Assembly: GCA_030765235.1 (NCBI GenBank)
Contig: JAVCCW010000029.1
Span: 219,499 to 283,498, forward strand
Direction: 5' to 3'
Origin: Candidatus Gorgyraea atricola
Lineage (GTDB): Bacteria > Omnitrophota > Gorgyraeia > Gorgyraeales > Gorgyraeaceae
DNA: 64,000 nt
In this document: positions 6,497 to 57,318 of the stretch, one piece after another
Numbering within the stretch: the first letter of the stretch is position 1
Layout: each line of letters starts with the position of its first letter
Made by a program: the position numbers and the translations under genes
Notes under the pieces: generated by a model
What the model was told of the DNA's origin: nothing
The model's database searches: none
Seen by the model: only the letters and a program-made list of their open reading frames with translations

Positions 6497-6507
6497 AAGG
6501 CATAGAT

Positions 6508-27304: not shown

Positions 27305-28072
27305 TTATTTTTCACCAGAAATTAAAAAACCTGTCGCGAAAAAGCTACATTTTGATAATTTGCCATACTCAAACCTTTTTGCCCAAAAATTGGTAAATAT
27401 TCTTAATATTCTCGTAACAGGATAAGCAAAGACATTTACATTATAATTGACAGATACCAGGCTCTTAAAACCGGCATTAACATATAACCTCTTGGCACTT
27501 TTGAGATCCCATAGTCTTCTTGGTGGTTGATGCAGAGATTTTCCAAAAATTCTTCTTGCTAAATACCTGAATAACATAAGGGATTGTACGGATATATAGT
27601 CTAATGATTGAAAATTCGGAAAGGAAAAGATTAGGCGGCCGCCGATAGGTAGTTTATTGTATAGCCTTTGAATTAATTCTTCTGGGTTATCAAAATATTC
27701 AATAAATCCTAATCCTATCATGATGTCCAGATTATCGGGTAATCGCATCTTTCTTATATCACCAAAAATAAGGCTTACCTCATCTTTATTAATATAATTT
27801 GGATAAATTCTTTTAATCTCATCCAACATTTTTCTTGAGGCATCCAGGCCTATGTATTGACCTCCGGCATCTATCACAAGAGGCATAAGGATCCCGGTTC
27901 CACAGCCTAGGTCAAGAACCTTTTTATTCTGAAAGGAGCATGCTAGAGTTATCGTTTTTTGGAGCCTGACAATAAACGAATAAGCGAGTGGATTTTTGGA
28001 GTTATACAGAGAGTTCCATCGCCCAGCTTTAGCCGAATCTTCAAAATAGGTCAATATTGCATTGTAGTCCAT
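27305..28072 (-). CDS. Class I SAM-dependent methyltransferase
   Basis: Motif I VLDLGCGTGIL. It is the only minus-strand gene, convergent with the upstream operon (9-nt tail-to-tail gap). Confidence 0.75.
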   Translation of the reverse strand: MDYNAILTYFEDSAKAGRWNSLYNSKNPLAYSFIVRLQKTITLACSFQNKKVLDLGCGTGILMPLVIDAGGQYIGLDASRKMLDEIKRIYPNYINKDEVSLIFGDIRKMRLPDNLDIMIGLGFIEYFDNPEELIQRLYNKLPIGGRLIFSFPNFQSLDYISVQSLMLFRYLARRIFGKSLHQPPRRLWDLKSAKRLYVNAGFKSLVSVNYNVNVFAYPVTRILRIFTNFWAKRFEYGKLSKCSFFATGFLISGEK

Positions 28073-33016: not shown

Positions 33017-35055
33017 GTGCACCGAAGCTCAGCGTTATTATGAGCGCATATAACAGCGAAAGATATCTTGATGAGAGCATAAAGTCTATTCTTGGGCAGA
33101 GTTTTAAAGATTTCGAGTTTCTGATCATAGATGATGGCTCTATAGACAGGACTTCTGAAATATTGAACGATTATCAGAAAACAGACAACAGAATACGCGT
33201 TATAAAAAACAAAGTAAATATCGGCCTTTCGAAATCCCTTAATATTGGCATAAGAGAGGCTCAGGGGGAATATATTGCGCGTCAGGATGCAGACGATACA
33301 TCTATGCCTGATAGATTGAGCAAGCAGATAGAGTTCATGCAAGACAGTGAGGAGATAGCTATTTCCGGAACATTTTATAGGATGATCGACGAAAGAGACA
33401 GGCTTTTGTATAGATTTATAATGCCTGCGGAAGACAGTGAGATAAAAAAGTGGCTGAGAGAAGTTAATTGTTTTTGCCATGGTTCTGTAATGTTCAGGAA
33501 GAAGGACATTAAAGAGGTTGGTTTATATCCCGAGCAGTATGAATGTTCGCAGGATTATGCATTATGGCTGACGATGAGCAAGAATTATAAATTAGCAAAT
33601 ATCCCTGAATTTTTATATACGTTGAGATTGCACGGAAGCGCAAGGAGCGTAAAAGATAAGGCAAAACAATGGGATTGCCTGTTTAGAATAAAAAGAAGTA
33701 AGGGCATTGTCGCAGACACTTGTTCATTCTCAGATAGATTTATTGCAGACGAATTTTTTAGATATAGCAATTTTTTTAACAGGATGGGAATGAAAAAGCT
33801 GGCAGTCGGTCATTTTATAAAAGGGGTATTTTACAGGACTTTTGTTTCGCCAATGGGCGTTAGAAAGAATAAAACTTTAGGCATTTGCATGCTTACAGGG
33901 GTTTTTTATCCTGAGATAAGCGGCGGTGGGCTACAGAGCCGTACTTTGGTAAATGCTTTAAAATATGATAGCAACTTAAGATTTTTTGTTTTGACTACCA
34001 CAAGGGATCCTTTATTGCAGGATAAAAATTCTGATCTATACATAAAAAGGATATATGTAGGAGACATGAGTTTTACAGCCAAATTTATAGCGATCCTACA
34101 ATTCGTTCGCGCATTTTTGAGCATAAGAAATAAAATAGATATTGTCCATCTGCACGGCTTTTCCAATAAGACATTGCTTATGATATTATTGGCAAAGATA
34201 TTCAGAAAAAAGATCGTGCAAAAGATCACTTCTTTAGGGGATGACGACCCTGTTTCAATAGGTAATAGAAGGTTTGGCAGGTTAAAAAGATTCTTTTTTT
34301 CTGCGGCAGATTTTTATATTAGCGTGAATCCGGCAATGTCTCAGGGGCTTTTAGATGCGGATATCTCACAGGATAGGATGGCGACTATTCCCAACGGAGT
34401 TGATATTGAAAGATTTTGCCCTTCTAAAAGTCATGACGAGAAGAATGCATTAAGAAAGAGTTTAAAATTGCCGAAAGAGGCGTTTATTATATTATTTGTC
34501 GGATTTTTTTCTAAAGATAAAGGCGTGGATGTTCTTTTCGAGGCATATAAGGATATAATCGCTGATTTTAAGGATAAAGATATAAGGTTATTATTTATTG
34601 GATCGACTGATACCAGCTATTTTGAGATAAAACAGGAAATAATAGAACGCATAAAGAAAGAGATAAGAGTTGGCAAGATGGAGGAAAAGGTCTTATTTGT
34701 AGAGAAGACACTGGATATAGAAAAATATTACAAGGCCTCTGATGTATTCGTATTGCCTTCCTTCAGAGAAGGATTGCCAAATTCCCTTATGGAGGCAATG
34801 GCTTCTGGATTGCCATGTGTTTCATCTCGTTTAAGAGTAATAGAGGATTATCTGATTACACACGACTCAGACGGCCTGCTTTTTGAGCCAGGGGATGTTA
34901 ATGGATTGTATTTAGCATTAACTCGGCTGTTAGGGGAACCAGGTCTAGCCAAAGAAATGGGCATTAAAGCCAGAAAAAGGACCATAGATTATTTTTCTAT
35001 AGAACGATTGGCTAAAAAATATAGAGATGCTTATCTGTTCCTGGTGCAGGAATGA
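33013..35055 (+). CDS. Bifunctional glycosyltransferase: N-terminal GT2 domain + C-terminal GT4 domain
   Basis: N-terminus LSVIMSAYNSERYLDESIKSILGQ...LIIDDGS...ARQDADD (GT2). C-terminus VLPSFREGLPNSLMEAMASGLPCVSS (GT4). Confidence 0.8.
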   Translation: MSAPKLSVIMSAYNSERYLDESIKSILGQSFKDFEFLIIDDGSIDRTSEILNDYQKTDNRIRVIKNKVNIGLSKSLNIGIREAQGEYIARQDADDTSMPDRLSKQIEFMQDSEEIAISGTFYRMIDERDRLLYRFIMPAEDSEIKKWLREVNCFCHGSVMFRKKDIKEVGLYPEQYECSQDYALWLTMSKNYKLANIPEFLYTLRLHGSARSVKDKAKQWDCLFRIKRSKGIVADTCSFSDRFIADEFFRYSNFFNRMGMKKLAVGHFIKGVFYRTFVSPMGVRKNKTLGICMLTGVFYPEISGGGLQSRTLVNALKYDSNLRFFVLTTTRDPLLQDKNSDLYIKRIYVGDMSFTAKFIAILQFVRAFLSIRNKIDIVHLHGFSNKTLLMILLAKIFRKKIVQKITSLGDDDPVSIGNRRFGRLKRFFFSAADFYISVNPAMSQGLLDADISQDRMATIPNGVDIERFCPSKSHDEKNALRKSLKLPKEAFIILFVGFFSKDKGVDVLFEAYKDIIADFKDKDIRLLFIGSTDTSYFEIKQEIIERIKKEIRVGKMEEKVLFVEKTLDIEKYYKASDVFVLPSFREGLPNSLMEAMASGLPCVSSRLRVIEDYLITHDSDGLLFEPGDVNGLYLALTRLLGEPGLAKEMGIKARKRTIDYFSIERLAKKYRDAYLFLVQE

Positions 35056-35813
35056 GAGTTCTGAACCCAAAAATTGAATCTATATCGCGCCATACTTTTA
35101 TTAACAATCTAGATAAAGGGTCTGTTGTCGTGGATCTGGGCGCAAGCAGGGGAAATTTTTCAAAAGAGATAGCAGAAAAATACTGTTATTCAATGCTTGT
35201 TTTGGTTGAAGGAAATCCGGAATTAAGCGTAGGACTAAAAGCCTTTTTCAAAGACAATGATGCGATAAAGGTGGTGAACGCAGTTATTGGAGGTGAAACA
35301 AGGGATAGTATCAAATTCTATTTAAGCGAATCACCAAGCTCAAGTTCATTATTCAGGCCATTTAGCGAATTAAACAAGGTTAAGAGCGAAATAAATGCAA
35401 AGATGCTTACACTGAATGACATATTTTCTATATGTGGTATTAGAAAAATAGATCTATTGAAGATGGATATAGAGGGCGCGGAATGGGATGTGCTCGAGAG
35501 ATTTTCAGAAGAAGATTTTAATAAGATAGAACAGATATCAGTAGAGTTTCATGATTTTATAGAACCTGGATTGAAGGCAAGAACCAAACATTGTATTAAA
35601 AAAAATAAAAAACTAGGTTATTGTTTTGTTAATATGGGGGTTAACTACAGAGATGGAATAACATATAAGGACTGTCTGTTCTATAAGAAGAAACACAGAA
35701 ACACAGTTTTTATATATAGATTAAAATGCATGGCAGGAGGTTTGGTGCGGATTTTTTTAAAAATACCAAAAAAGATATTAGGTGTAATGAACTTCAAAAG
35801 ACATAAAGGATAA
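35052..35813 (+). CDS. FkbM-family methyltransferase
   Basis: VVDLGASRGNFS and the hallmark LKMDIEGAEWDVLE. Confidence 0.8.
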   Translation: MRVLNPKIESISRHTFINNLDKGSVVVDLGASRGNFSKEIAEKYCYSMLVLVEGNPELSVGLKAFFKDNDAIKVVNAVIGGETRDSIKFYLSESPSSSSLFRPFSELNKVKSEINAKMLTLNDIFSICGIRKIDLLKMDIEGAEWDVLERFSEEDFNKIEQISVEFHDFIEPGLKARTKHCIKKNKKLGYCFVNMGVNYRDGITYKDCLFYKKKHRNTVFIYRLKCMAGGLVRIFLKIPKKILGVMNFKRHKG

Positions 35814-35821
35814 CATCAAAA

Positions 35822-37114
35822 ATGAGATTTATAACTACTGTATACGGGGTTTATTATCTTCCGTTTGTTTGTGTTCTTCTTCAGAGCATAGAACAATATC
35901 ATCCTTTTGAAAAAGTATCTATATTTTATGACGATCTGCCGGACCATGAGGCCTTGATTTTAAGGGACAGGTTTCCGGTCTATGAGTTTATTCAAAACCC
36001 GAAGACCATAGAGGAGGATCATATCCTTCAGAAGATACCTCTGCGGCTTCGCCATTGGTTTAAGGCGTGCGAGTTGTATCCTGAGGAATCTCTTTTTTTT
36101 CTTGATTGCGATGCAGCGCTTTGTAAGAACATGGCTAATTTCATAAATGACAGCTATGATGTCATGTATACATGGAAACCGGAACAAACTCCGCTTAACG
36201 CAGGAATGGTAGCCATTAATAATAATAAATCAGGCCGCGTTTTTATGAAGAATTGGCTGGCCCTTACGGAAGAGATTGTCCACGATGAAGAAAAACTTCG
36301 ATTTGCACATAAGATGAACGGCGGCGGGAGTCAGCATACTATGGCAATATTGCTTGATTCATCAGATTACGACGCTTCTTTTGAGAGGACTATAGACGGA
36401 GAAACAGTCAGATTTAAGGGGATGGCTTGTAAATATCTGAACGAAACTAATAGCTGCCCTATTACCGCAGATACGCATGTGATCCATTATAAAACAGGAT
36501 GGCATCCTATTATCTTAGAAGGGAAGCCGTTTACAAAGAACAGGCCGAAAGATCTGGGTAAAGAGATGTGGGACTATTGGCATAAGTTATACCGGGAATT
36601 TTCTTTGACCTCAATAGAATCATTTATTGCCGCGTCTCTTAAAAGGCACGGAGGTAGATTCGAAAACGGTTTATATGACGCAGTATATGGGGTATTAGAG
36701 GATTTTCAGGCAGACATGCTTATATATGCCGGAGAAATTAAAAAAGAGCATAAGGAATATTTGGCGCAATGCCTTGAAAGTAAAACAAGAAAAGTGGAGT
36801 TCACCAAAAGCAATGCCGGCAGTATCAGAGGTATTTTGAAAAGATATAAGCCAAAAAGGGCTATTATATTTTTTGGAGGCGTAAAAAAAGAAAAGGCAGT
36901 AAGGTTGTTCAAGGATATCATAGTTGATTTTCAGGAGATCATAGCAGGTTTCTTTTGCGCGTCTGATGCTGAAAGATTAGAAAATAATTTTGACAGAACT
37001 TTCTTTGTAAAAGGCTCCGGAAATCTGGCTGTTGTCTTGCCTGCATATAAGGAACGAAGACCGGGCAGGATAAAGAGTTTTTTTAATAACCTTAAAATAA
37101 TAAGGAAACGTTAA
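35822..37114 (+). CDS. Hypothetical protein, possible GT-A-like nucleotide-sugar transferase (DxD)
   Basis: 430 aa. The FFLDCDAALC segment looks like a DxD motif. No other recognisable signature. Confidence 0.35.
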   Translation: MRFITTVYGVYYLPFVCVLLQSIEQYHPFEKVSIFYDDLPDHEALILRDRFPVYEFIQNPKTIEEDHILQKIPLRLRHWFKACELYPEESLFFLDCDAALCKNMANFINDSYDVMYTWKPEQTPLNAGMVAINNNKSGRVFMKNWLALTEEIVHDEEKLRFAHKMNGGGSQHTMAILLDSSDYDASFERTIDGETVRFKGMACKYLNETNSCPITADTHVIHYKTGWHPIILEGKPFTKNRPKDLGKEMWDYWHKLYREFSLTSIESFIAASLKRHGGRFENGLYDAVYGVLEDFQADMLIYAGEIKKEHKEYLAQCLESKTRKVEFTKSNAGSIRGILKRYKPKRAIIFFGGVKKEKAVRLFKDIIVDFQEIIAGFFCASDAERLENNFDRTFFVKGSGNLAVVLPAYKERRPGRIKSFFNNLKIIRKR

Positions 37115-37115
37115 A

Positions 37116-38939
37116 ATGTGCGGCATCTTTGGTTTTACAGGCCCTTCTTCAGTCCGCGATCTGGCTAAATATGCCTTGACGCAAAGGCATAGAGGGCCGG
37201 ACGCGTTCGGAGAATATCTTAATGAGAGGCTCGGAGTCTATCTGGCGCATAATAGATTGGCCATCATAGATCTTTCTGAAAAAGGAAAACAGCCTATGTC
37301 AAACGAAAACGGTTCTATATGGCTGACTTTTAACGGCGAGATCTATAACTTTGAGGAACTTAGAAAGGATCTGATCGGCTATGGGCATAGGTTCAAGTCC
37401 AGGACTGATTCTGAAGTCATACTTCACGCATACGAGCAGTGGGGAACAGAATGCCTGAAGCGCCTGAATGGCATGTTTGCTTTCGCTATCTGGGATGAAA
37501 ACAGACAGAATTTTTTCATTGCCCGAGATAGGCTTGGAATAAAGCCTCTTTATTACCTGCATCAGGCTGGCAATTTTGTTTTTGCTTCCGAACCCAAGGC
37601 CATAATAGAGCTCCCTTTTTATAAAAAAGACATATCTTACCCGGCGCTTTTTTCCTATCTTATATACCGTTATATACCGGGCGAATGCTCAATATGGAAA
37701 AATATCTTAAGACTGGAACCAGGGCATTATCTGATATATGATAAGGCTGGTAATCTGCTGACCAAGAGACGTTATTGGCAAATACCGTTGGAACAGAAAC
37801 GCTGGAAGGAAGATGATGCTGTAGAATGCCTGGACTCCCTTATAAAATCTTCTGTATCTTATAATTTGATAAGTGATGTGCCTATAGGGATATTGCTGAG
37901 CGGCGGGATTGATTCTACGGCAATAACCTCATATGCCTCCTCCTTAGCACCGCATATAAATACATTCAGCATTGGTTTTCATGATTTTCAAAGATCCGAA
38001 TTGAAAGACGCGGCTGTCGTAGCCAGGCATTTTAAAACAACCCATAGCGAAGACAGGGTAAGCCCTGGGAACATACAGCGATTAAAGGATATTTTTAATT
38101 ACTTTGATGAGCCGCTTGGGGACAGTTCCATCATCCCTACTTTCCTCGTCAGTAAGATCGCTAAAAAACATACAACAGTAGTCTTGTCCGGCGATGGCGG
38201 AGATGAGCTTTTCGGCGGCTATAAATGGTATGAGAGGCATAGAAGATTAATGCAATGGAAGCCGCTTGCCTGTCTTTTCCATCCCGTGTTGAAACTATTA
38301 AAGGGAAGGGGCAGTATACTAGGCCATACAAGAGATGCATTTGGGCTATATCGCCAGATGACATCGCCCAGGTTTACTGTCAGGGAATTAAAAAGGCTCT
38401 TTCCTGCAGTAAAAAACGAAGACTTCCCTGAATCAGAAAATTATATTTACCGCAGACACTACAAAAAGGACCTTCCTGTGTATAAACGCTGGCAATATAT
38501 AGACGCTATGACCTTTTTGGCAGACGATATACTGACAAAGGTCGACCGGGCTTCTATGGCCAATTCTCTGGAAGTAAGGCCGCCCCTTCTGGATTATCGT
38601 ATTGTTGAGTTTGCGTTTTCGTTGCAGGATGACCTATGCATAAGAGACAAGGCAAGCAAATACATACTGAAAAAACTCATAAAGGACAAAGTCCCAAAAG
38701 ATATTTTAAATAAACCAAAGCAGGGATTTAGCTGTCCGATACATCAATACTGGTCGGTAGACGATATGCTGGAAGGTATAAATAAAGGACGTTTATTGAG
38801 CTCTGGAACTATTGATAAGGCAGCGTGGGCAAAAATCCAGTCAGGGGATGTTAGGCATGATCACCTTGACGCAAAGATCTGGCAGATCGCTGTATTGGAA
38901 GAGTGGTTTTCCAGGTGGTATTGCCAGGATAAAAAATAA
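37116..38939 (+). CDS. Asparagine synthetase (glutamine-hydrolysing) family amidotransferase, WbpS-like
   Basis: MCGIFGF N-terminal nucleophile Cys2, and SGGIDS PP-loop at LLSGGIDST. Confidence 0.85.
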   Translation: MCGIFGFTGPSSVRDLAKYALTQRHRGPDAFGEYLNERLGVYLAHNRLAIIDLSEKGKQPMSNENGSIWLTFNGEIYNFEELRKDLIGYGHRFKSRTDSEVILHAYEQWGTECLKRLNGMFAFAIWDENRQNFFIARDRLGIKPLYYLHQAGNFVFASEPKAIIELPFYKKDISYPALFSYLIYRYIPGECSIWKNILRLEPGHYLIYDKAGNLLTKRRYWQIPLEQKRWKEDDAVECLDSLIKSSVSYNLISDVPIGILLSGGIDSTAITSYASSLAPHINTFSIGFHDFQRSELKDAAVVARHFKTTHSEDRVSPGNIQRLKDIFNYFDEPLGDSSIIPTFLVSKIAKKHTTVVLSGDGGDELFGGYKWYERHRRLMQWKPLACLFHPVLKLLKGRGSILGHTRDAFGLYRQMTSPRFTVRELKRLFPAVKNEDFPESENYIYRRHYKKDLPVYKRWQYIDAMTFLADDILTKVDRASMANSLEVRPPLLDYRIVEFAFSLQDDLCIRDKASKYILKKLIKDKVPKDILNKPKQGFSCPIHQYWSVDDMLEGINKGRLLSSGTIDKAAWAKIQSGDVRHDHLDAKIWQIAVLEEWFSRWYCQDKK

Positions 38940-40447
38940 TGACACTATTAAAGAAAAGTTTCCAGGGGGCTGCATATCAATACGTGGGTTTGGCATCTAC
39001 TGCCATTTTGGGTTTTTTTACCTCCGTATACCTGATTAGAAAACTGACCATAGAAGAATATGGTATCTATAATTTTCTATGGTCGGTTGTAATCGTCGCG
39101 AACCTTATTACCGCGTTCGGCATGCCTCAGGCAATCCAGAGATATCTCCCGGAATACAGACAAAAAAATGATATCTATACGCAGAAAAACATAATCATAA
39201 AGTCTATGCTGCTCAGGTTCCTGGCTGATGTTTTGTTCGCGCTTATTTTTCTGGTGAGCATAGATAAGCTGCTGCTTGTATTTAATATCCCGCAGGGCTG
39301 GAAACTTTGCGTCTTTGCCTCGCTCCTTATCACGTTTTTCAATGTTGAATCAAAGCTGCTCGGAGACGGCGCCTTGTCTGCTATGCTGGAAAACAGATAT
39401 TTAAATATAATCAACATAATCTGCAAGGCGCTTCAATTGGGTTTATTTATTTTATCCATAGCCTTAGGGTATGGCCTGTATGGCATAATATTGGCATGGC
39501 TGGTTATAGAGGTGGCGTTATTCCTGTCGTATTTTTATAAGGTTTATAGGAATATTTTATGTCGTCCTGTCCTGGTATCCAAGGATAATAAGAATCTTCC
39601 ATTAAAGAGATTTATGAGCTTCGGCGGCTATGTATACCTGGCAAATATAGCCTTTTTTTTTACAGACCGCTCAGCTGATATATTTCTATTGTCTTATTTT
39701 ATCGGACCTGAAGCAGTAGGGTTGTATTCATTTGCATTCGGTATACCTCTTACTATCATGCGACTGTCTCCGGCAAGCGCGCTGAGGTCTTTATTGACCC
39801 CTGTCGTAGTGAGCCGATATACTGCCACGAAAAGCAGCAAGGACCTAGTGTATTTCTTTTCGTTCATCAGCCGTTTGACTTTTTTTATAATGGTGCCTTT
39901 GTTTATATCTTTTATGATACTTTCGGACGGAATAATAAAATATGTATTTAATGTAAGTTACCTGGGAAATAAAGATCTGTTTATACTATCTTTATTCTTT
40001 GTGACAATACTTCAATTTCTGTATTCCTACAGCTCGATCATATATACGCTTGAGAAAAAACGGCTGTTTTTAATATCAATTCTTTTTGGGGCTTTAAATT
40101 TAATAGGCGATATAATCCTTATTCCCATATATGGGGCAAAGGGAGCGGTATTGGCTACCGGGGTCTCTGGCGTACTCTTAATAGTAGTGTTCCACATGGT
40201 CATAAAAAGAAGCCTGAGTATCAGTTACCCCTGGCGTTCGTTTGCTAGTTTCAGTTTGAATACCCTGGCGATGTGCGTTGTACTGTTCGCGTTAAAAGGG
40301 CTGCCCAACGGCGTTTTTTCTCTTGTTTGTGTTTTTTTAACTGGATTAGCAGTATACATCACAGCCTCTTATTTTAATAAAGGATTTGAGAAAAAAGACA
40401 GGGAATTGATAAATAAGGGCATAGGGAGAGAGATATGGGTATTCTAA
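38939..40447 (+). CDS. Wzx-type oligosaccharide flippase (MOP/polysaccharide biosynthesis protein family)
   Basis: 502 aa and about 12 TM helices. The N-terminus QYVGLASTAILGFFTSVYLIRKLTIEEYGIY is typical of Wzx. ATG overlaps the upstream stop. Confidence 0.75.
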   Translation: MTLLKKSFQGAAYQYVGLASTAILGFFTSVYLIRKLTIEEYGIYNFLWSVVIVANLITAFGMPQAIQRYLPEYRQKNDIYTQKNIIIKSMLLRFLADVLFALIFLVSIDKLLLVFNIPQGWKLCVFASLLITFFNVESKLLGDGALSAMLENRYLNIINIICKALQLGLFILSIALGYGLYGIILAWLVIEVALFLSYFYKVYRNILCRPVLVSKDNKNLPLKRFMSFGGYVYLANIAFFFTDRSADIFLLSYFIGPEAVGLYSFAFGIPLTIMRLSPASALRSLLTPVVVSRYTATKSSKDLVYFFSFISRLTFFIMVPLFISFMILSDGIIKYVFNVSYLGNKDLFILSLFFVTILQFLYSYSSIIYTLEKKRLFLISILFGALNLIGDIILIPIYGAKGAVLATGVSGVLLIVVFHMVIKRSLSISYPWRSFASFSLNTLAMCVVLFALKGLPNGVFSLVCVFLTGLAVYITASYFNKGFEKKDRELINKGIGREIWVF

Positions 40448-41100
40448 ATAAGGTACTGTCAAGTAGGACTATTTCAAGGAAAATGGTTTTATTTTTATTA
40501 AGGACGCATCATAAGATATACGCGATGCTGGGAAGATGCGCTGCTTTTAGCGAGGGAGGACTACATCCAAAACATAGATTAATGGATTACCATAAATTTT
40601 TTGTAGACAATATTAAAGAAGGCGACAGAGTTTTAGACGTGGGCTGTGGGAATGGTGCATTGAGTTTTGATCTAGCCGGGAAGGCAGCATTTGTGACAGC
40701 CATAGATATAAACAGGGAAAATATAGAACATTGCCTGAAAAAATATAAAAAGGAGAACATAAAATATATTCTGGATGACATCTGGAATTTGCCTCAAGGT
40801 TCTAGATTTGACGCGGCTATACTTTCTAGCGTGCTGGAGCATATCGAGGATAGGATAGGGTTTTTGCAAAAGTTAAGCAAGGTCACCGAAAAGATCATAG
40901 TGCGCGTTCCCATGATAGACCGCGACTGGGTGTCTTTATATAAAAAGGAATTAGGCCTGCCGTATCTATTGGACCCTACTCATAAGATAGAGTATACGCT
41001 GGATGTATTTAACGACGAATTAAAGCGCGGCTGTTTTAAATTAGAAAAATATTCCATCAGATTTGGGGAGATTTGGGCGGTATGTTCAAGAAATTTTTAA
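40435..41100 (+). CDS. Class I SAM-dependent methyltransferase
   Basis: Motif I VLDVGCGNGALS, and LEHIED post-I region. Confidence 0.7.
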   Translation: MGILNKVLSSRTISRKMVLFLLRTHHKIYAMLGRCAAFSEGGLHPKHRLMDYHKFFVDNIKEGDRVLDVGCGNGALSFDLAGKAAFVTAIDINRENIEHCLKKYKKENIKYILDDIWNLPQGSRFDAAILSSVLEHIEDRIGFLQKLSKVTEKIIVRVPMIDRDWVSLYKKELGLPYLLDPTHKIEYTLDVFNDELKRGCFKLEKYSIRFGEIWAVCSRNF

Positions 41101-42107
41101 GAAATTTATTATTTTCCGGGAAGAACAGGTTAAAAAGCGGAGAAAAAGAAAGGCTTATGGCAATTACGGAAGACCGCATTACGAAGCTTGCTGTGGAGGT
41201 TACCAATATCTGCAACGCGAACTGCATTTTTTGCGGTTATCGTCACCAGAAAAGAAAAAAATATATTTTATCAAACGAACAATTCAGGTATTTTTTGGAT
41301 AAATATGTGGAATACGGGGGAGGAGAATTAAAATTTACCCCTATCGTGGGAGACCCTTTAGTTGATAAAAATTTAATAGATAAGATCAAGATGGCCAGGA
41401 GAGAAAGATGCATAGGGCATATGTATCTATTTACAAATCTGATAGGACTGAATAATTTTAATATCACTGATTTTCTGCTTTCAGGGATTAACAGGGTTTA
41501 TGTCTCTACATGCATTGGTAATAAAAAAATGTATAAACGCGTATTCGGAGTAGACTGTTATGATGTCGTGATCAGTAATATAGAAAAACTGCTCAAAGAG
41601 AACAATAAGCTTGGAAAACCGGTAAAGATCGTTATCACATCAAGGGGGGAGAGGCCTTACAGGGGTATTTATGGAAGCAGCGATTATAAGCGTATAGTTG
41701 GTTTATATGGCGCCAATATTGAGATACTGGAGGAATATGGCAATTGGACAGGTGATGTCACTGAAAATGAACTTCCCAGGGGGCATTCCTTCAGAAAGAT
41801 AAAAAACAGGATAGAGCCGTGCTCCCAACTATACAACGGATTTATTATATTGGCTAACGGGGATGCTGGCATCTGCTGGTGCACTGATCTGGAGGCCAAC
41901 CTGATCATAGGCAATGTATATAAGGAGTCTCTGGATGATATATGGAGAGGCGAAAAATTGAAATCTATGAGGGAAAATTGGTTAAAAGGGGATATGCCTC
42001 CTATATGCAGGAATTGCCACATATATACCCCTGTGTCGGTTTTTTTATCTTGTAACAGGAAAAAGATAAATAATACTAAGGAGAGTTTTCAGTATGCAGG
42101 GAAATAA
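41082..42107 (+). CDS. Radical SAM protein with C-terminal SPASM/twitch-like Cys-rich domain
   Basis: CNANCIFC (CxxxCxxC) near the N-terminus. The C-terminal Cys cluster is GICWCTD...ICRNCH. The start is ambiguous: TTG 41073, ATG 41082 or ATG 41157. Confidence 0.7.
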   Translation: MFKKFLRNLLFSGKNRLKSGEKERLMAITEDRITKLAVEVTNICNANCIFCGYRHQKRKKYILSNEQFRYFLDKYVEYGGGELKFTPIVGDPLVDKNLIDKIKMARRERCIGHMYLFTNLIGLNNFNITDFLLSGINRVYVSTCIGNKKMYKRVFGVDCYDVVISNIEKLLKENNKLGKPVKIVITSRGERPYRGIYGSSDYKRIVGLYGANIEILEEYGNWTGDVTENELPRGHSFRKIKNRIEPCSQLYNGFIILANGDAGICWCTDLEANLIIGNVYKESLDDIWRGEKLKSMRENWLKGDMPPICRNCHIYTPVSVFLSCNRKKINNTKESFQYAGK

Positions 42108-43191
42108 GAAAGAAACCATATATTGCAAAAGATGTATTCTTCCTGACAGATATCCAGAGGTTAATATTAATGACCAAGGGATATGTAATTTTTGCCTGGC
42201 ACATTCTGACCACGCAGTCTTAGGAGAGGGTGCATTGGCGGGATTGGTAAATTCTCTTAAGAAAGGCAATAAATATGACTGTGTAGTGCCAATAAGCGGG
42301 GGTAAGGATAGCTCGTTTATATTGTATTACGCGGTTAAAAAATTGAATCTTAAAGCTGTCGCGGTTAATTATGATTCAGGGGTGCAGTCCGATTTAGCCA
42401 TAGAGAATATGAAAAACACCTGCAGGATACTCAATGTCCCCCTGGTCTTTAAAAAGGCGGATAGGAGACTACAGATGAAAAGGCTGGAGACCATGCTGAA
42501 ACTATCAGAGCGGCTTGGTTCTTTTGTCCTTGGATGCGGAGGATGTGTTCCAGTATTGCAGGCAGCGACTATAGGCTTTGCAAATGATAATGATATACCT
42601 ATTATTTTAGACGGGGGATCATCTTTGGAGCATGTCCCTGTATTGAGAAATAAAATAAAAAAATCAAAGTTAAAATCAATCGTAAAGAGATTAAAAGACA
42701 GGATAGAATCTATAGTGAGATATAAGCTGTATGATTTGGATTTTGTTAAGTATATATATTTATTTAAATATAAAAAATATAATAAACAGCTTAATGAGCA
42801 TATGGGTGTTTCCAAGACCGTAAGGCCGCCCCTTGGATATACAGATCCGATTGTCTCCAGGAACACCACTATTATACGTTTTTCGAATTATATAATGCTG
42901 CCTGAGATGGAGATCGTCAGGATTATAAAAGAAGAATTGAATTGGAAAAATCCGACAGGGACAGATAAAAGATTTGATTGTCTGCTACATTGCTTGTCTG
43001 ACTTTGATCATTTGATGAAATACGGTATAACAAGCAATGGCATGGTTTATTCTAATATTATACGACAGGGGCTGATGAGCAGGGAAGATGCCCTTTATAA
43101 AGAAAGTTACGCAAAGGATAATGTTTTTAGAGACTGCGCCTTATTAGCTAAAAAACTTAAATTGGATAATTACGAAATGCCGTCTTTATGA
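42094..43191 (+). CDS. N-acetyl sugar amidotransferase, second paralogue (WbuX/PseA-like)
   Basis: CKRCILPDRYP...CNFC Cys-rich N-terminus and PISGGKDSS PP-loop. Same architecture as ORF 1249-2451. RBS AAGGAGAG upstream. Confidence 0.7.
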   Translation: MQGNKKETIYCKRCILPDRYPEVNINDQGICNFCLAHSDHAVLGEGALAGLVNSLKKGNKYDCVVPISGGKDSSFILYYAVKKLNLKAVAVNYDSGVQSDLAIENMKNTCRILNVPLVFKKADRRLQMKRLETMLKLSERLGSFVLGCGGCVPVLQAATIGFANDNDIPIILDGGSSLEHVPVLRNKIKKSKLKSIVKRLKDRIESIVRYKLYDLDFVKYIYLFKYKKYNKQLNEHMGVSKTVRPPLGYTDPIVSRNTTIIRFSNYIMLPEMEIVRIIKEELNWKNPTGTDKRFDCLLHCLSDFDHLMKYGITSNGMVYSNIIRQGLMSREDALYKESYAKDNVFRDCALLAKKLKLDNYEMPSL

Positions 43192-43868
43192 AAAGAAACG
43201 TTAACGTATATACATCAAGAGAAGATAAACCTGAGTATCTTTTGAAGATATTTCCTGATTTATTTTTATCATCAGATAGTTTATTGGATGTGGGTTGTGA
43301 TAAAAAGCAGTTAAAGAAAATTTTGTTACCGAAGACATCTTATGCCGGCATAGATATAACAGGGATGCCGGATATCATATTTGATCTGGATAGTGGGAAA
43401 AGCCTGCCTTTTGAAGACAAAAAATTTGATCTAGTTTTTTGTTCAGAAGTGCTGGAGCATCTTGAAAATATACATTTTATTTTTGATGAATTATGCAGAG
43501 TTTCAAATAAATATGTACTTATAAGCCTGCCTAATGCTATGACAGGGATTTCCGCTTATTTACGCGGCAACATTTATTCTGATACTTTAGAGAAAAATAA
43601 GATGTTCGGCAAATACATTAAATTTTACGGCTTGCCTCTGGATAAGCCCCTTGACAGACATAGGTGGTTTTTCAATACAGAGGAGGCGCTAGAATTCGTA
43701 AGATACAGAGCGGAGAAGAACGACTGTAAAATAGAACAAATACTTTATTCAGCGGATCTGAGCGATATACAGCCTAGTATTTCTCAAAAGATATTAACTT
43801 GGTTCAATAGGAAGAAGTTGCTTAATTCTTTTAATCATATGACTTGGTTTTTGATTAAAAAGGGTTAA
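43188..43868 (+). CDS. Class I SAM-dependent methyltransferase
   Basis: LLDVGCD...FDLVFCSEVLEHL. Confidence 0.7.
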   Translation: MKRNVNVYTSREDKPEYLLKIFPDLFLSSDSLLDVGCDKKQLKKILLPKTSYAGIDITGMPDIIFDLDSGKSLPFEDKKFDLVFCSEVLEHLENIHFIFDELCRVSNKYVLISLPNAMTGISAYLRGNIYSDTLEKNKMFGKYIKFYGLPLDKPLDRHRWFFNTEEALEFVRYRAEKNDCKIEQILYSADLSDIQPSISQKILTWFNRKKLLNSFNHMTWFLIKKG

Positions 43869-43880
43869 AAAATATTAATC

Positions 43881-44486
43881 ATGAAAAAGACTATTTTTCA
43901 AATAATATATGATTTTATATGCATGCCGTTTCGTTTAGTCCTTTTGCCGGACAGTATCTGCGAAAGGCTTGGCTTGACATCATTGCGGCAGGAACGCGTA
44001 TTTAATGTATTGCCGCATGTCAAAGGCAGGCTGATTGATATAGGATGCGGAGATAATATGCTGGTAAATATCTATTCTAATGGCTTAGGCGTTGATAACC
44101 GAGATTTAGGAAAAGGAGCTGTTATAATAAAGAATGTTGCCAATTTACCCTTCGAAGATCATACCTTTGATACAGTGACTTTTGTGGCTTCTTTGAATCA
44201 TATAGTTTCCAGAAAAGAGGCCTTGAGTGAGGCAAGGCGTTTATTGAAGCCGGACGGAAGACTTATTGTAACAATGATAGGGCCTATAATAGGAGCAATA
44301 GCGCATTTATTATGGTGGTATAGTGAAGATAAGCATCGAGGGGGCATGAAGAATGGAGAGGTAGGAGGCATGACTACCAAAGAGATACTGCGTTTATGTC
44401 TTGGGGCCGGATTCCAATTAAAAGAACATCAGAGGATCGTATACAAGATGAACAACATATATATCTTCGAATTGAAAAACGCGTAG
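43881..44486 (+). CDS. Class I SAM-dependent methyltransferase
   Basis: LIDIGCGDN...LKPDGRLIV. Confidence 0.65.
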   Translation: MKKTIFQIIYDFICMPFRLVLLPDSICERLGLTSLRQERVFNVLPHVKGRLIDIGCGDNMLVNIYSNGLGVDNRDLGKGAVIIKNVANLPFEDHTFDTVTFVASLNHIVSRKEALSEARRLLKPDGRLIVTMIGPIIGAIAHLLWWYSEDKHRGGMKNGEVGGMTTKEILRLCLGAGFQLKEHQRIVYKMNNIYIFELKNA

Positions 44487-44510
44487 GATCTCGCTGAAAC
44501 GGAAAGTTCA

Positions 44511-45299
44511 ATGTCGCGTGTATCGGAAAAGACAATCAGGGATTTTGGAGATCAATGGAAACAACATGAAGAGAATAGTGGCTATTACGCATCCAGGGAG
44601 CTTTTTAAAGACATCATATCCCCTTTATTGAGGATTGAGGATTTAAAAGGGGCTAGGGTAGCTGAGATAGGCAGCGGCACAGGGCGTATCGTCAATATCC
44701 TGCTGGAATCGGGTGTCAGTCATGTGTTTGCGATAGAGCCGTCCGAGTCATTTAATATATTAAGACAGAACGTCTCGGATCCGGATAAGGTGACTTGTCT
44801 TAAAATAAAAGGCAAAGACCTGCAGGCTTATGGAGATTTGGATTTTGTTTTCTGTATAGGCAGCATACATCACATGCCGGATCCGAAACCTGTTGTTGAT
44901 GCTGCTTATAATGCCTTGCGCAAAGGAGGCCGTATGATTATGTGGTTATACGGATATGAAGGCATAGAGATATACGTAAATGTCATAAAAACCATGCGTT
45001 TCATCACGACCCGTATTCCTGACACAGCCCTCAGGATCATTGTAAGGATGATAGACATACCTTTAATAGTATATATGCATCTATGCGCCAGGTTTAAACT
45101 GCCATTTGCCGAGTATTCCAAGGTATTAATGAAGCTGGAGCCGCGACATCGCAGGCTTACTATTTTTGATCAACTGAACCCTGATTATGCTAAATATTAC
45201 AGATATGAAGAGGCGCTGAATCTTTTATCAGGCAAGTTTCGGGATATAAAAATCAAGAACCGCAGGAATTACAGCTGGACGGTGATCGGGACAAAATGA
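44511..45299 (+). CDS. Class I SAM-dependent methyltransferase
   Basis: VAEIGSGTGRIV...LRKGGRMIM. Confidence 0.65.
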   Translation: MSRVSEKTIRDFGDQWKQHEENSGYYASRELFKDIISPLLRIEDLKGARVAEIGSGTGRIVNILLESGVSHVFAIEPSESFNILRQNVSDPDKVTCLKIKGKDLQAYGDLDFVFCIGSIHHMPDPKPVVDAAYNALRKGGRMIMWLYGYEGIEIYVNVIKTMRFITTRIPDTALRIIVRMIDIPLIVYMHLCARFKLPFAEYSKVLMKLEPRHRRLTIFDQLNPDYAKYYRYEEALNLLSGKFRDIKIKNRRNYSWTVIGTK

Positions 45300-46429
45300 A
45301 TATAACGCTGCTTTTTACGTATAATATTTCTCTGGAGGAATGGAGTTATAAGGGCCTGATTGACAGGGAGCTTTTAATCTATCATCGTTTTATAGATAAG
45401 GGTCATAAGGTGAATTTTATCACTTACGGCGGGACAGATGACTTGAGACATCAAGAAAAGACAAAAGATATAAGGATATTTCCTGTCTATGAAAGGGCAA
45501 AAAGGTCCAGATGCGAAGCGGTTAATATATTGAAATCCCTTTTTATCCCCTTTAAATTCAGGGATGTTTTTAAAAATACAGATATTATAAAAATAAACCA
45601 GATGCAGGGGGCATGGGTAGGCCTTATCGCAAAATATATTTACCATAAAAAATTAGTGGTACGCTGCGGTTTTGAGTGGTACAGGAATGCTTATATACGC
45701 AGGAAAAAAACCTTTGCCGTATTCAAAAATGGTCTTGTGTATATATTGGAATGGTTGGTCTATAAGTTATGCGACGAGATTATCATATCTAATGAAACAG
45801 ACGCAGAATTTATTAAAAGTAACTTTAATATAAGAAAGTCAAAGGTGCACTTGATAAGGAATTACGTGGATACAGCTATCTTTAAACCGCTGAATAGCGT
45901 TAAGAAAGAAGGCAATAGATTGCTGTATATAGGGAGATTTGAGCCGAGAAAAAATATATTAAACATATTAAAGGCTGTTAAGGATACGCTGTATGCCTTG
46001 GATATAATAGGCTATGGCGAAGAAAAGGATTTATTGAATAATTTTGTCAGAGATAATAGTCTAAACGTGGTATTTTTGGATATTCTCCCGAATAATAAAC
46101 TCCCCACGTTGCTTAATAAATATAACGCATTGATATTAGCGTCGCTCTACGAGAACAGCCCAAAGGTGATCCTGGAGGCTATGTCTTGCGGTGTACCTGT
46201 CATAGGGGCAGATGTGTCCGGGATACGTGAATTAATAAGGCATAGGGAAAACGGATTCTTATGTGACACTGATCCATCTTCTATCAGGGCAGCTGTCGAT
46301 TCTGTCATGCGAGATCCTGTGTTGCGGAATAATATGGCGGAATCAGCAAGAAGATATATAATGGAGAATTGCGATATAGAGATTATATTGGAAAAGGAGC
46401 AGGGCATATATAATAGCCTGACTAATTAA
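45296..46429 (+). CDS. Family 4 glycosyltransferase
   Basis: C-terminal ASLYENSPKVILEAMSCGVPVIGADVSGIRELI. ATGA overlap with the upstream gene. Confidence 0.8.
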   Translation: MNITLLFTYNISLEEWSYKGLIDRELLIYHRFIDKGHKVNFITYGGTDDLRHQEKTKDIRIFPVYERAKRSRCEAVNILKSLFIPFKFRDVFKNTDIIKINQMQGAWVGLIAKYIYHKKLVVRCGFEWYRNAYIRRKKTFAVFKNGLVYILEWLVYKLCDEIIISNETDAEFIKSNFNIRKSKVHLIRNYVDTAIFKPLNSVKKEGNRLLYIGRFEPRKNILNILKAVKDTLYALDIIGYGEEKDLLNNFVRDNSLNVVFLDILPNNKLPTLLNKYNALILASLYENSPKVILEAMSCGVPVIGADVSGIRELIRHRENGFLCDTDPSSIRAAVDSVMRDPVLRNNMAESARRYIMENCDIEIILEKEQGIYNSLTN

Positions 46430-46430
46430 G

Positions 46431-47399
46431 ATGAAGAAATTCCTACTTGATTTATTGGTTTGCCCGCATTGTAAAGGAGAGCTGCGGCTCGAGGGGGCCG
46501 AGTATGCGGGCAAGGAAATAGAATCCGGCAGATTGGCATGTTCTTGCGGAGAGGTGTTCTCTATAAAAAACAGCATACCAAGGTTTATCAGGCCGGAAAA
46601 TTATGCGGATAGCTTTAGTTTTCAGTGGAGGTATTTTTCAAAGACGCAATTGGATTCTTTTAATAAGACGCATATTTCAGAAAATAGATTCAGAGAAATA
46701 ACAGATCTGTCTCATAAGAGGTTAGACAACAAGGTTGTTCTGGATGCGGGTTGCGGTATGGGCCGTTTCCTGGAGATAGCAGCTAAATCTAATGCTCAGG
46801 TAGTAGGAATTGATATGAGCCTGGCAGTGGATGCTGCAAAGGCTAATTTAAAGGACTTCCCAAATGTCCACATTGTGCAGGCAAGTATATTTAATATGCC
46901 TTTTAAACGGCATAGTTTTGATTTTATCTACAGTATAGGCGTTCTGCATAATACCCCGGATCCGAAAAAGGCCTTTAAGTCATTAACGCCTTTTTTGTCC
47001 AAGAATGCAGGCATAGCTGTATGGTTAGGCCCTAAGACTAAATTCCCGTGGTTTTTTACAGCGACGCGTGCGGTAAGGTCTTTTACTCCGAACATGAAGC
47101 CTGTATTTTTACTTAAGCTGGTCAGGTCCTTAGTGCCGTTGTGCCTGCCTTTAGTCAGGATCCCGTTTATCGGACCTTTACTTAAAGGTAAGATTATCCC
47201 AGTATGCGATTATAAGAATCAGCTCCCTTTGAATAATGCCCAGCTTCTGGAATGGAGCGTCCTTGATACATTTAATATTTTGTCTCCTAAATATCTGCAC
47301 CCGTGTAAACCCCAGGAGGTTAAATCCTGGTTTCTTGAATCCGGGCTTCGTGATATACAGATAACTTCTCCGTCTGTTACGGGCCGGGCTCATTCATAA
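46431..47399 (+). CDS. Methyltransferase with N-terminal Trm112-like zinc-ribbon
   Basis: LLVCPHCKGEL...CSCGEVFSI zinc-ribbon, followed by VLDAGCGMGRF motif I. Confidence 0.65.
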   Translation: MKKFLLDLLVCPHCKGELRLEGAEYAGKEIESGRLACSCGEVFSIKNSIPRFIRPENYADSFSFQWRYFSKTQLDSFNKTHISENRFREITDLSHKRLDNKVVLDAGCGMGRFLEIAAKSNAQVVGIDMSLAVDAAKANLKDFPNVHIVQASIFNMPFKRHSFDFIYSIGVLHNTPDPKKAFKSLTPFLSKNAGIAVWLGPKTKFPWFFTATRAVRSFTPNMKPVFLLKLVRSLVPLCLPLVRIPFIGPLLKGKIIPVCDYKNQLPLNNAQLLEWSVLDTFNILSPKYLHPCKPQEVKSWFLESGLRDIQITSPSVTGRAHS

Positions 47400-47411
47400 A
47401 GAGTGTAAAAA

Positions 47412-49112: not shown

Positions 49113-49126
49113 TAGGACTATAGAAT

Positions 49127-51031: not shown

Positions 51032-51035
51032 AAAT

Positions 51036-57299: not shown

Positions 57300-57318
57300 T
57301 TTAAGGTGATTTTTGGAC

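Follow-up and report, generated by a model that had tools for sequence, protein, structure and literature searches.

A candidate strain-variable tailoring cassette within a probable surface-glycoconjugate super-locus of Candidatus Gorgyraea atricola

Introduction

The O-glycosylation cluster of Tannerella forsythia, reported in 2018, is a polycistronic locus with a Wzx flippase, pseB/C/F/H/G/I-type genes, several GT2 and GT4 glycosyltransferases, an AsnB-type amidotransferase, an acetamidino-modified nonulosonic acid, and, within 27 kb, three class I methyltransferases that add only two methyl groups (PMC6120980). As far as genes can tell, these features recur in a 64,000-nucleotide stretch of DNA from Candidatus Gorgyraea atricola, referred to here as the window (GenBank assembly GCA_030765235.1, contig JAVCCW010000029.1, positions 219,499 to 283,498). 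The window is probably part of a mosaic surface-glycoconjugate super-locus, in which the genes at 35052-47399, several of them for S-adenosylmethionine (SAM)-dependent methyltransferases, form a tailoring cassette that varies between strains and is embedded in a conserved scaffold. Unlike the T. forsythia cluster, the locus extends over more than 64 kb, encodes nine methyltransferase-fold, four radical SAM, and four GT-C proteins as well as a second type of flippase, carries polyprenyl-phosphate-sugar synthases fused to tailoring domains, lacks WecB/WecC-type uronic-acid genes, belongs to an Omnitrophota host, and is known from its genes alone. Methyltransferase density is 0.14 per kb here and 0.11 per kb in T. 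forsythia.

The Arn and Gtr systems offer a second parallel. As in the window, where the synthases are 51036, 55173, and the C-terminal part of 61423 (genes are named by the window coordinate of their first nucleotide), GT2 synthases stand beside GT-C transferases with tailoring enzymes between them; ArnD acts on the lipid-linked sugar between ArnC and ArnT. Unlike in Arn, the synthases of the window are paired with radical SAM and SAM-methyltransferase domains, some of which are fused to the GT2, and every score is below the equivalog cut-off.

Omnitrophota are ubiquitous, uncultured, and mostly ultra-small, and some are thought to be epibionts or predators; such interactions, like encounters with phages, take place at the cell surface. 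Candidatus Gorgyraea atricola, an uncultured anaerobe, was described from Ace Lake, Antarctica (PMC8542988), and neither that paper nor a large survey of the Omnitrophota (PMC10066038) mentions glycosyltransferases, methyltransferases, or lipopolysaccharide. A 2026 preprint independently reports population-variable polysaccharide cassettes in this phylum (10.64898/2026.06.07.730766).

Tailoring Cassette in a Conserved Scaffold

The cassette was compared with three related loci: L002, a syntenic contig from another sample (JGI 3300014656) whose proteins are 75-94% (about 90%) identical to those of the window; L169, with about 79-87% identity; and L171 (GCA_041648935.1), with 43-71% identity. 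A common order is kept in all four loci, comprising GT2-GT4 genes, the FkbM methyltransferase, the GT8-like transferase, Wzx, 40435, 42094, GT4 45296, and the Trm112-methyltransferase 46431. The genes of the cassette are as follows, with the ratio of nonsynonymous to synonymous substitution rates (Ka/Ks) where orthologues allow; 41082, like 57319 and 60561 further on, is an alternative start, an in-frame ATG a few codons within the longest open reading frame (ORF).

35052-35813, plus strand: FkbM methyltransferase (PF05050, Methyltransf_21, 47.8 bits; TIGR01444, 69.5 against a cut-off of 37.7); motif VVDLGASRG; Ka/Ks 0.19 against L002
35822-37114, plus strand: GT8-like retaining glycosyltransferase with a C-terminal Rossmann-like domain (AlphaFold predicted local distance difference test score, pLDDT, 87; Foldseek matches GlyE, LARGE1, glycogenin, and LgtC)
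37116-38939, plus strand: AsnB-type amidotransferase (GATase_7 and Asn_synthase; Cys2; SGGIDS; TIGR01536, 481 bits against a cut-off of 267); Ka/Ks 0.10
38939-40447, plus strand: Wzx-type flippase (PF01943; about 13 hydrophobic segments)
40435-41100, plus strand: class I methyltransferase (Methyltransf_31/25/11); VLDVGCGNG; Ka/Ks 0.17; conserved in L002 and L171
41073-42107 (probable start 41082), plus strand: radical SAM/SPASM protein (PF04055 and PF13186); CNANCIFC; Ka/Ks 0.12
42094-43191, plus strand: PP-loop enzyme resembling NASATs, in which an additional CxxC…C triad makes up a putative [4Fe-4S] site (TIGR03573, 146.9 bits)
43188-43868, plus strand: class I methyltransferase (Methyltransf_23/11); variant motif I DVGCDKK
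43881-44486, plus strand: class I methyltransferase (Methyltransf_11/23); IDIGCGDN; Ka/Ks 0.09
44511-45299, plus strand: class I methyltransferase (Methyltransf_11/12/25); EIGSGTG; Ka/Ks 0.12
45296-46429, plus strand: GT4 glycosyltransferase (PF00534/PF13439)
46431-47399, plus strand: Trm112-like zinc ribbon (PF03966, Trm112p, 30.3 bits against a cut-off of 22) fused to a class I methyltransferase (Methyltransf_31/11); Ka/Ks 0.13; conserved in L002, L169, and L171

Gene content varies most plainly in the slot between the PP-loop gene 42094 and GT4 45296, where the number of methyltransferases runs from three to none.

Window: three (43188, 43881, and 44511)
L002: two (43881 and 44511); 43188 is absent and an extra SGNH/GDSL gene is present
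L169: one (43188); 43881 and 44511 are absent and an unrelated ORF of 262 amino acids is present
L171: none; AsnB 37116 and radical SAM-SPASM 41073 are lacking as well

The genes that are shared have been kept under purifying selection. Ka/Ks lies at 0.09-0.20 for 12 genes between 33013 and 47399 when the window is set against its L002 orthologues, and at 0.09-0.19 for the six methyltransferases of 35052-47399, including 43188, whose 87%-identical L169 orthologue retains DVGCDKK and gives a ratio of 0.14. An earlier note, made from the letters of this DNA, had placed 17 tailoring enzymes in the window and had asked whether the methyltransferase-like ORFs might be truncated or lack SAM-binding motifs. 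All 17 ORFs are present at the coordinates given and prove to be uninterrupted, full-length frames with intact catalytic motifs, motif I is retained in the methyltransferases, and Ka/Ks is 0.09-0.20 in the thirteen cassette genes with orthologues.

Throughout 35052-51995, intergenic gaps range from -27 to +24 bp and all genes point in the same direction; therefore, the cassette genes are probably co-transcribed. Across the window, Pfam and NCBIfam scans of every ORF recovered 54 closely spaced ORFs, 53 on the plus strand, nearly all with roles in glycoconjugate synthesis, and 17 of the 54 proteins (31%) carry tailoring domains of the methyltransferase, radical SAM, AsnB, or NASAT-like type. 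The window encodes about 13 GT2, GT4, GT1, and GT8-like glycosyltransferases. Its GC content is about 37%, the coding strand is rich in purines, and Rfam and tRNA scans of the window returned no elements.

Two more distant relatives, L005 and L006, extend the comparison. Their glycosyltransferases, GT-C protein, and DUF218 protein are 55-67% identical to those of the window, while identity drops to 22-35% among the methyltransferases and radical SAM enzymes, which are thus not orthologous to the tailoring enzymes of the window. In L005, the orthologue of GT4 45296 (8038-9981, 647 amino acids) is a methyltransferase-GT4 fusion with a GT4 half 58% identical to 45296, a Rosetta-stone hint that a methyltransferase works together with 45296, which is itself flanked by methyltransferases 44511 and 46431.

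GT4 45296 is also unusual in its divergence. It shares 75% amino acid identity with its L002 counterpart (13977-15101) at a Ks of 1.38, against about 0.3-0.4 for its neighbors, and it adjoins the SGNH-gene indel of L002. Since 45296 is so much more diverged than its neighbors and lies beside this indel, a recombination breakpoint is suggested.

Protein 35822, identical (100%) to NCBI protein P9L93_06830, is not a tailoring enzyme, its structure model and Foldseek matches being those of a GT8-like glycosyltransferase. Longer homologues (505-557 amino acids) retain an ESGRxRGQST motif and give weak matches to Methyltransf_24/4, whereas this motif and about 80 residues are gone from 35822 and from the L171 copy. 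Judged by its sequence, the C-terminal domain of 35822 appears to be what is left of a methyltransferase-like domain, one that the longer homologues preserve intact.

Methyltransferase Density

Methyltransferases were counted in the window and in 80 comparison loci, which are NASAT-like gene neighborhoods from GTDB genomes, with an iterated class I methyltransferase hidden Markov model (HMM) trained on the window enzymes (the 61423 fusion having been trimmed) and validated on Pfam-annotated loci. The iterated model was used because plain phmmer searches with window proteins under-count methyltransferases, finding none of the three in L005.

80 comparison loci: 12 methyltransferase hits in 1171 kb, 0.010 per kb
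Nine glycosyltransferase-rich comparison loci: 4 hits in 149 kb, 0.027 per kb
Window: 8 hits in 64 kb, 0.125 per kb
Region 35052-47399: 6 hits in 12.3 kb, 0.49 per kb

By this measure, the density in the window is approximately 5-12 times that of the comparison loci, with Poisson P values between about 5e-7 and 4e-4 for the window and between about 5e-9 and 1e-6 for the 12.3 kb region. In a Pfam control of 120 ORFs from 8 comparison loci, methyltransferase families never had more than two members, in keeping with the expectation in the earlier note that most loci carry none to two such enzymes. However, L005 and L006 contain 3-4 methyltransferases per 21 kb; L006 also encodes a radical SAM-SPASM protein, and L005 a radical SAM-SPASM protein and three B12-radical SAM enzymes. 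Thus, the "exceptionally dense" complement described previously holds against the 80 comparison loci but not against L005, L006, or the T. forsythia cluster: the density is non-random and far above that of typical loci, though not above that of relatives. Moreover, counting methyltransferase genes gives too high a figure for methyl groups, as the three enzymes of T. forsythia add only two.

Methyltransferases of the Window

The earlier count of about nine SAM methyltransferases stands. Eight proteins pass the Pfam gathering score as class I or FkbM enzymes (27305, 35052, 40435, 43188, 43881, 44511, 46431, and the N-terminal part of 61423), and a ninth, 60540, which had been listed as possible under its start at 60561, has no Pfam hit and is added by a confident COMT-like structure model. 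Likewise, the Trm112-like N-terminus proposed for 46431 was recovered. Three of the nine lie outside the cassette.

27305-28072, minus strand: class I methyltransferase (Methyltransf_11/25/23; VLDLGCGTG), the sole minus-strand gene of the window
60540-61415 (annotated start 60561), plus strand: COMT-fold methyltransferase-like protein (AlphaFold and Foldseek)
61423-62907, plus strand: class I methyltransferase domain (Methyltransf_25) fused to a polyprenyl-phosphate-hexose synthase-type GT2 (PF00535)

Motif I is present in all nine and canonical in seven; it reads VVDLGASRG in the FkbM enzyme 35052, VETGTDMG in 60540, and DVGCDKK, a variant, in 43188. Protein 60540 (NCBI P9L93_06930, 100% identical; this protein and P9L93_06830 come from a 404 kb contig of a Candidatus Gorgyraea atricola metagenome-assembled genome, and the twenty-gene spacing between the two tags agrees with the ORF list) has no Pfam, NCBIfam, or PDB sequence match. 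Its AlphaFold model has a pLDDT of 91.8, and its top 50 Foldseek matches in the PDB are all of the class I SAM methyltransferase fold, mostly COMT, TrmR, and YtqB O-methyltransferases, at a probability of 1.0 and target TM-scores of 0.33-0.64 (mostly 0.53-0.64). Distant homologues bear PF01596/PF13578 or the name YrrM O-methyltransferase, and E27-T28-G29, D139-A140-H141 (LDAH), and D167 are invariant in an alignment of 43 sequences.

None of the window methyltransferases reaches an NCBIfam equivalog cut-off, and the sugar substrates proposed for them are suggested by genomic context. A recent tandem duplication was ruled out as the origin of the set, paralogues being at most 22% identical.

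Radical SAM Enzymes, Amidotransferases, and Lipid-Linked Sugars

Genes downstream of the cassette combine tailoring enzymes with polyprenyl-phosphate-sugar synthases and GT-C transferases; one radical SAM gene, 18916, lies upstream of it. The window as a whole encodes four PMT_2 GT-C transferases and at least three GT2s of the polyprenyl-phosphate-sugar synthase type.

18916-20469, plus strand: B12-binding radical SAM enzyme (PF02310 and PF04055; CX3CX2C at residue 217; BchE, 141 bits, below cut-off)
47412-49112, plus strand: protein of 566 amino acids with about nine transmembrane segments and a soluble C-terminal domain (hydropathy profile)
49127-51031, plus strand: second AsnB-type amidotransferase (PF00733, 355 bits, and GATase_7; Cys2; SGGIDS), 36% identical to 37116
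51036-51995, plus strand: ArnC/GtrB-type polyprenyl-phosphate-sugar synthase, a GT2 with C-terminal transmembrane segments (ArnC NF007986, full-length, 191 bits; PgfS)
53957-55871, plus strand: PMT_2 GT-C transferase, followed by an AglJ/PpgS-like polyprenyl-phosphate-sugar synthase (55173)
55887-57299, plus strand: B12-binding radical SAM enzyme, HpnJ/AprD4-like (PF02310 and PF04055; CPYSCIFC)
57313-59346 (alternative start 57319), plus strand: GT2-radical SAM-SPASM fusion (PF00535, PF04055, and PF13186; CNARCKHC)
59365-60564, plus strand: PMT_2 GT-C transferase with a weak ArnT match
62904-64000, plus strand: PMT_2 GT-C transferase running past the window end

The three radical SAM enzymes and one fused enzyme named in the earlier note (18916, 41073, 55887, and 57313) all score above the PF04055 gathering threshold, and each has CX3CX2C. 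Both 18916 and 55887 carry a B12-binding domain, with BchE, HpnJ, P-methyltransferases, and AprD4 as top matches, all below cut-off and several not methylases. GenK and Fom3 are class B cobalamin radical SAM methylases; BtrN and AprD4 are aminoglycoside enzymes, a dehydrogenase and a dehydratase, respectively, and HpnJ is a ring-contraction enzyme of hopanoid sugars. Protein 55887 shares the layout of a B12-like domain followed by a radical SAM domain with HpnJ (208 bits, below cut-off) and AprD4, its nearest solved relative (2.5e-20), and 41073 shares a radical SAM domain with an auxiliary-cluster (SPASM/twitch) region with its nearest solved relative, BtrN (1.4e-6); in both cases the matches are far below family cut-offs, and both enzymes, unlike these relatives, belong to a surface-glycan locus. 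Sequence does not distinguish whether such enzymes act as methylases, dehydratases, dehydrogenases, or ring-contraction enzymes. The C-methylation proposed earlier is not specifically indicated, the nearest characterized relatives of 55887 and 41073 not being methylases.

In the fusion 57313, the radical SAM half is nearest to SkfB and MoaA. About 45 of the best 150 representatives of 50%-identity clusters are full-length fusions of 670-790 amino acids, and the fusion apparently is a recurrent, uncharacterized architecture. The two halves also occur as adjacent separate genes in other metagenome loci (L089, L090, and L096 were compared).

The GT2 half of 61423 has Dol-P-hexose transferase, PgfS, AglJ, and ArnC as its top models. 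Because 57313, 61423, and 55887 lie among polyprenyl-phosphate-sugar synthase and GT-C genes, tailoring of lipid-linked sugars is suggested, and the methyltransferase-GT4 fusion of L005 and the methyltransferase-GT2 and GT2-radical SAM fusions of the window link tailoring physically to glycosyltransferases.

Both AsnB-type amidotransferases, 37116 and 49127, stand as previously assigned, with the complete signature of a Cys2 nucleophile, a class II GATase domain, and an Asn_synthase domain containing SGGIDS. For 47412, which has no match in Pfam, NCBIfam, or the PDB, its topology suggests that it could be a GT-C transferase, a polymerase, or a ligase. The GT1 (TuaH-like)-DUF218 fusion at 52104-53948 is 67-69% identical to L005 19002-20900 and L171 10814-12253, and is among the best conserved proteins compared between related loci.

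NASAT-Like PP-Loop Enzyme

The N-acetyl sugar amidotransferases, or NASATs (WbuX, PseA, WbpG, and LfnA; TIGR03573; structure 8WEX), are defined by a tetracysteine motif, CXXCXn[GN]XCXXC, together with a PP-loop SGGXDS motif (PMC10607449). Two WbuX-type enzymes had been assigned in the window, and the assignment holds for one of them. Protein 1249 is a bona fide member of TIGR03573 (347.8 bits against a cut-off of 203.2), whereas 42094 scores 146.9 bits although aligned over the full length of the model and, on sequence grounds, cannot be called a canonical WbuX. The tetracysteine motif occurs in both; the PP-loop motif is SGGKDS in 42094 and a variant, SGGKDA, in 1249. Unlike 1249, 42094 has three further invariant cysteines: the pair C148 and C151 (CxxC) and C296 are found in 39 of 39 aligned homologues and in 86, 86, and 85, respectively, of 86 further homologues (loci L005-L088) from Omnitrophota, Bacteroidota, Acidobacteriota, Planctomycetota, and archaea. 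At these columns 1249 has F, F, and D, and LpNASAT (8WEX) has Asp at the C296 column, the sole column of the three that can be checked in the printed alignment. Relatives of 42094 are named "hypothetical protein" at NCBI.

The combination of SGGXDS and CXXC…C is the signature of the PP-loop non-redox sulfur insertases with a tri-cysteine [4Fe-4S] cluster, such as Thermotoga LarE, TtuA, and NcsA (PMC9283937). TtcA shares it as well, and TtuA resembles 42094 also in its N-terminal zinc finger. The 42094 family profile matches TtuA and NcsA weakly (E about 0.003-0.02), and its CxxC was aligned with the CxxC of PDB entry 8cnz. However, the third cysteine lies about 145 residues past the CxxC in 42094 and about 80-90 residues past it in the sulfur insertases, and the context is that of a glycan rather than of a tRNA or cofactor. 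No conserved sulfur-carrier or desulfurase gene neighbors the family, the only recurrent neighbor being a GT4 (14 of 84 loci).

Our hypothesis is that the family holds a [4Fe-4S] cluster at its tri-cysteine site. It is conceivable, albeit doubtful, that 42094 represents a widespread, uncharacterized family of sugar-modifying PP-loop enzymes that has kept the zinc ribbon and ATP site of the NASATs and gained a [4Fe-4S] site like that of TtuA, NcsA, and LarE. Such an enzyme would adenylate an amide or carboxyl carbonyl of a sugar and then deliver cluster-bound sulfide to give a thioacetamido or thiocarboxylate sugar, or deliver ammonia by an oxygen-sensitive route; the neighboring, rapidly exchanged methyltransferases could S- or N-methylate the product. 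If this is true, the Fe-S enzyme together with the GT2-radical SAM and methyltransferase-GT2 fusions would mean that the surface sugars of anaerobic Omnitrophota use chemistry unseen in bacterial glycans.

Proposed Mechanism and Alternative Explanations

The sequences show which families the enzymes belong to, their intact motifs, the purifying selection on them, synteny, differences in gene content, and enrichment. What the enzymes act on and at which step, how many products arise and of what kind, and what exerts the selection are the subject of an inferred model. In this model, cytoplasmic enzymes would make activated sugars, among them CMP-pseudaminic acid (or related nonulosonic acids) and a third CMP-ulosonic acid. 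GT2, GT4, and GT8-like transferases would build the sugars onto a polyprenyl carrier, with the tailoring enzymes most likely acting on nucleotide- or lipid-linked sugars. Wzx and an MsbA/PglK-like ABC exporter would carry intermediates across the membrane, and GT-C (PMT_2) enzymes would add residues from polyprenyl-phosphate sugars in the periplasm. Three polyprenyl-phosphate-sugar synthases adjoin, or are fused to, a methyltransferase or radical SAM domain; this gene order suggests that lipid-linked monosaccharides could be tailored before periplasmic transfer, in the manner of ArnD. Gain and loss of methyltransferases, AsnB, the radical SAM-SPASM protein, and the SGNH gene among close relatives would diversify the surface glycan.

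Several points weigh against a strain-variable cassette within a surface-glycoconjugate super-locus. Pfam scans of the window recognized no initiating phosphoglycosyltransferase (Bac_transf or WecA type), Wzy, Wzz chain-length regulator, WaaL/PglL ligase, or oligosaccharyltransferase, and without these genes the glycoconjugate could be a lipopolysaccharide O-antigen, a capsule, or a protein glycan. Differences in gene content between metagenome contigs could in part be differences between species and not between strains. The factor of enrichment is a rough one, because only nine of the 80 comparison loci are glycosyltransferase-rich. In addition, a GT-C gene neighbors the GT2-radical SAM pair in only two of 75 metagenome loci; detection of divergent GT-C proteins is weak, so this link is neither supported nor excluded.

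The earlier note had proposed that the genes make one surface polysaccharide, very heavily O-, N-, and C-methylated and bearing uronamides made by AsnB and acetamidino groups made by two WbuX enzymes. The co-directional, closely packed genes and the intact enzymes under purifying selection are as expected from this proposal, and AsnB, methyltransferases, and an acetamidino-pseudaminic sugar do occur together in the T. forsythia glycan (PMC6120980). Nevertheless, a single polysaccharide is unlikely. The window encodes two flippase types (Wzx 38939 and the MsbA/PglK/HepA-like ABC exporter 12788), three to four CMP-transferases, one of them fused (7647), and at least three pairs of polyprenyl-phosphate-sugar synthase and GT-C enzymes, a complement that makes several products or routes more likely than one. 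A uronic-acid substrate for AsnB is not visible either, as a UDP-sugar 6-dehydrogenase (UDPG_MGDP_dh-type) did not turn up when all 54 ORFs were scanned with Pfam, although one could lie outside the window. Heavy methylation is further discouraged by the three T. forsythia enzymes that add two methyl groups (PMC6120980) and by the nearest characterized relatives of 41073 (BtrN) and 55887 (HpnJ and AprD4), which are not methylases. Of the two proposed WbuX enzymes, 42094 scores under the NASAT cut-off and has a different cysteine signature.

It is distinctly unlikely that many of the methyltransferases are instead chain terminators or length regulators, like WbdD caps, or act on lipid or protein, leaving the glycan lightly methylated. 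Such roles would be consistent with the lack of any methyltransferase that reaches an equivalog cut-off, with methyltransferase genes outnumbering methyl groups (PMC6120980), and with the presence of an ABC exporter. However, that exporter is of the fused MsbA/PglK type and not of the cap-reading Wzm/Wzt type, methyltransferase domains are fused to glycosyltransferases or their genes overlap, and turnover of methyltransferases in a single slot beside a GT4 fits the decoration of a repeat-unit sugar.

A specialized secreted or membrane glycoside, aminoglycoside- or glycolipid-like, as the product of the cluster or of its radical SAM-rich parts is very unlikely. Two radical SAM enzymes are nearest to the aminoglycoside enzymes BtrN and AprD4, the hopanoid-sugar enzyme HpnJ is the top NCBIfam match of 55887, and the related locus L006 encodes a DHQ-synthase-like sugar cyclase. 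Against this, these BtrN, AprD4, and HpnJ matches stay well under the family cut-offs; genes for a cyclitol synthase, for resistance, or for a regulator are absent from the window; and Wzx, the MsbA/PglK-like exporter, the GT-C transferases, the polyprenyl-phosphate-sugar synthases, the glycosyltransferases, and the nonulosonate pathways are hallmarks of envelope glycoconjugates. Finally, that the methyltransferase-like ORFs are decaying remnants whose density reflects annotation by weak similarity can be dismissed, for although 43188 has a non-canonical motif I, the methyltransferase-like domain of 35822 looks decayed, and 60540 matches no family, every ORF is full length with neither frameshifts nor neutral Ka/Ks, eight exceed Pfam gathering scores, six in the region are constrained (Ka/Ks 0.09-0.19) with the variant motif of 43188 conserved, and 60540 is modeled with confidence as a class I methyltransferase, its motif residues being invariant.

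A tailoring cassette in a surface-glycoconjugate super-locus remains the favored explanation. In its logic the system is conventional; it is unusual in its scale, tailoring density, radical SAM content, fusions, and turnover of tailoring genes, and one enzyme family, that of 42094, may be new in kind. At least 64 kb are devoted to surface glycoconjugates, with about 31% of the genes for sugar tailoring, and turnover of tailoring genes on a fixed glycosyltransferase scaffold is the pattern typically seen when surface antigens are under diversifying selection. The locus does not settle any long-standing question. It is instead a reservoir of uncharacterized carbohydrate enzymes that offers expressible targets for enzymology, including the GT2-radical SAM-SPASM fusion, the HpnJ/AprD4-like radical SAM enzyme, a COMT-fold family for which Pfam has no model, and the NASAT-like family and its putative Fe-S site.

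Nonulosonic-Acid, Ulosonic-Acid, and Export Genes

The first half of the window holds a nonulosonic-acid module (58-12546, plus strand; NCBIfam scores), followed by export and ulosonic-acid genes.

58, plus strand: NeuC-type hydrolysing epimerase (NeuC, 495 against a cut-off of 236)
1249, plus strand: NASAT/WbuX
2497, plus strand: CBS-nucleotidyltransferase
3591, plus strand: PseF-like CMP-transferase (PseF, 178, below the cut-off of 206)
5525, plus strand: PseB (527 against a cut-off of 408)
6508, plus strand: PseC (500 against a cut-off of 423)
7647-10109, plus strand: protein of 820 amino acids with a C-terminal CMP-transferase domain (CTP_transf_3)
10106, plus strand: PseG-like protein (PseG, 129, below the cut-off of 154)
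11023, plus strand: NeuB/PseI (NeuB_NnaB, 408 against a cut-off of 400; PseI, 338, below the cut-off of 340)
12079, plus strand: GNAT/PseH-like protein (PseH, 50, below the cut-off of 93)
12788-14650, plus strand: fused exporter of ABC transmembrane and nucleotide-binding domains (ABC_membrane and ABC_tran), a candidate flippase of lipid-linked glycans
28248-29639: PMT_2 GT-C transferase (Pfam)

At the equivalog level, the pseudaminic pathway is represented above cut-off by PseB and PseC, and below it by PseF, PseG, PseH, and PseI. Since NeuB_NnaB and NeuC pass their cut-offs while PseF, PseG, PseH, and PseI do not, the type of nonulosonate is left as one that could be of the pseudaminic (Pse), legionaminic (Leg), or neuraminic (Neu) kind. 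The first 580 residues of 7647 match no family except for a weak "PFTS motif" hit. For the 12788 exporter, the top NCBIfam matches are HepA, MsbA, and PglK, each below cut-off. Its start is overlapped by an ORF of 102 amino acids (12543-12851) that consists of a SAF domain alone and resembles the C-terminal end of NeuB; it may be what survives of a second synthase of the NeuB type.

Farther downstream, the block at 14670-21203 encodes two aldolases (HpcH, and an HMGL-like one joined to a weak MptE/Maf-like domain), a ferredoxin-like 4Fe-4S protein (Fer4), a HAD phosphatase, the B12-radical SAM enzyme 18916, and, at its end, a KdsB-like CMP-transferase. Together, these genes may form a pathway to a third, modified CMP-ulosonic acid.

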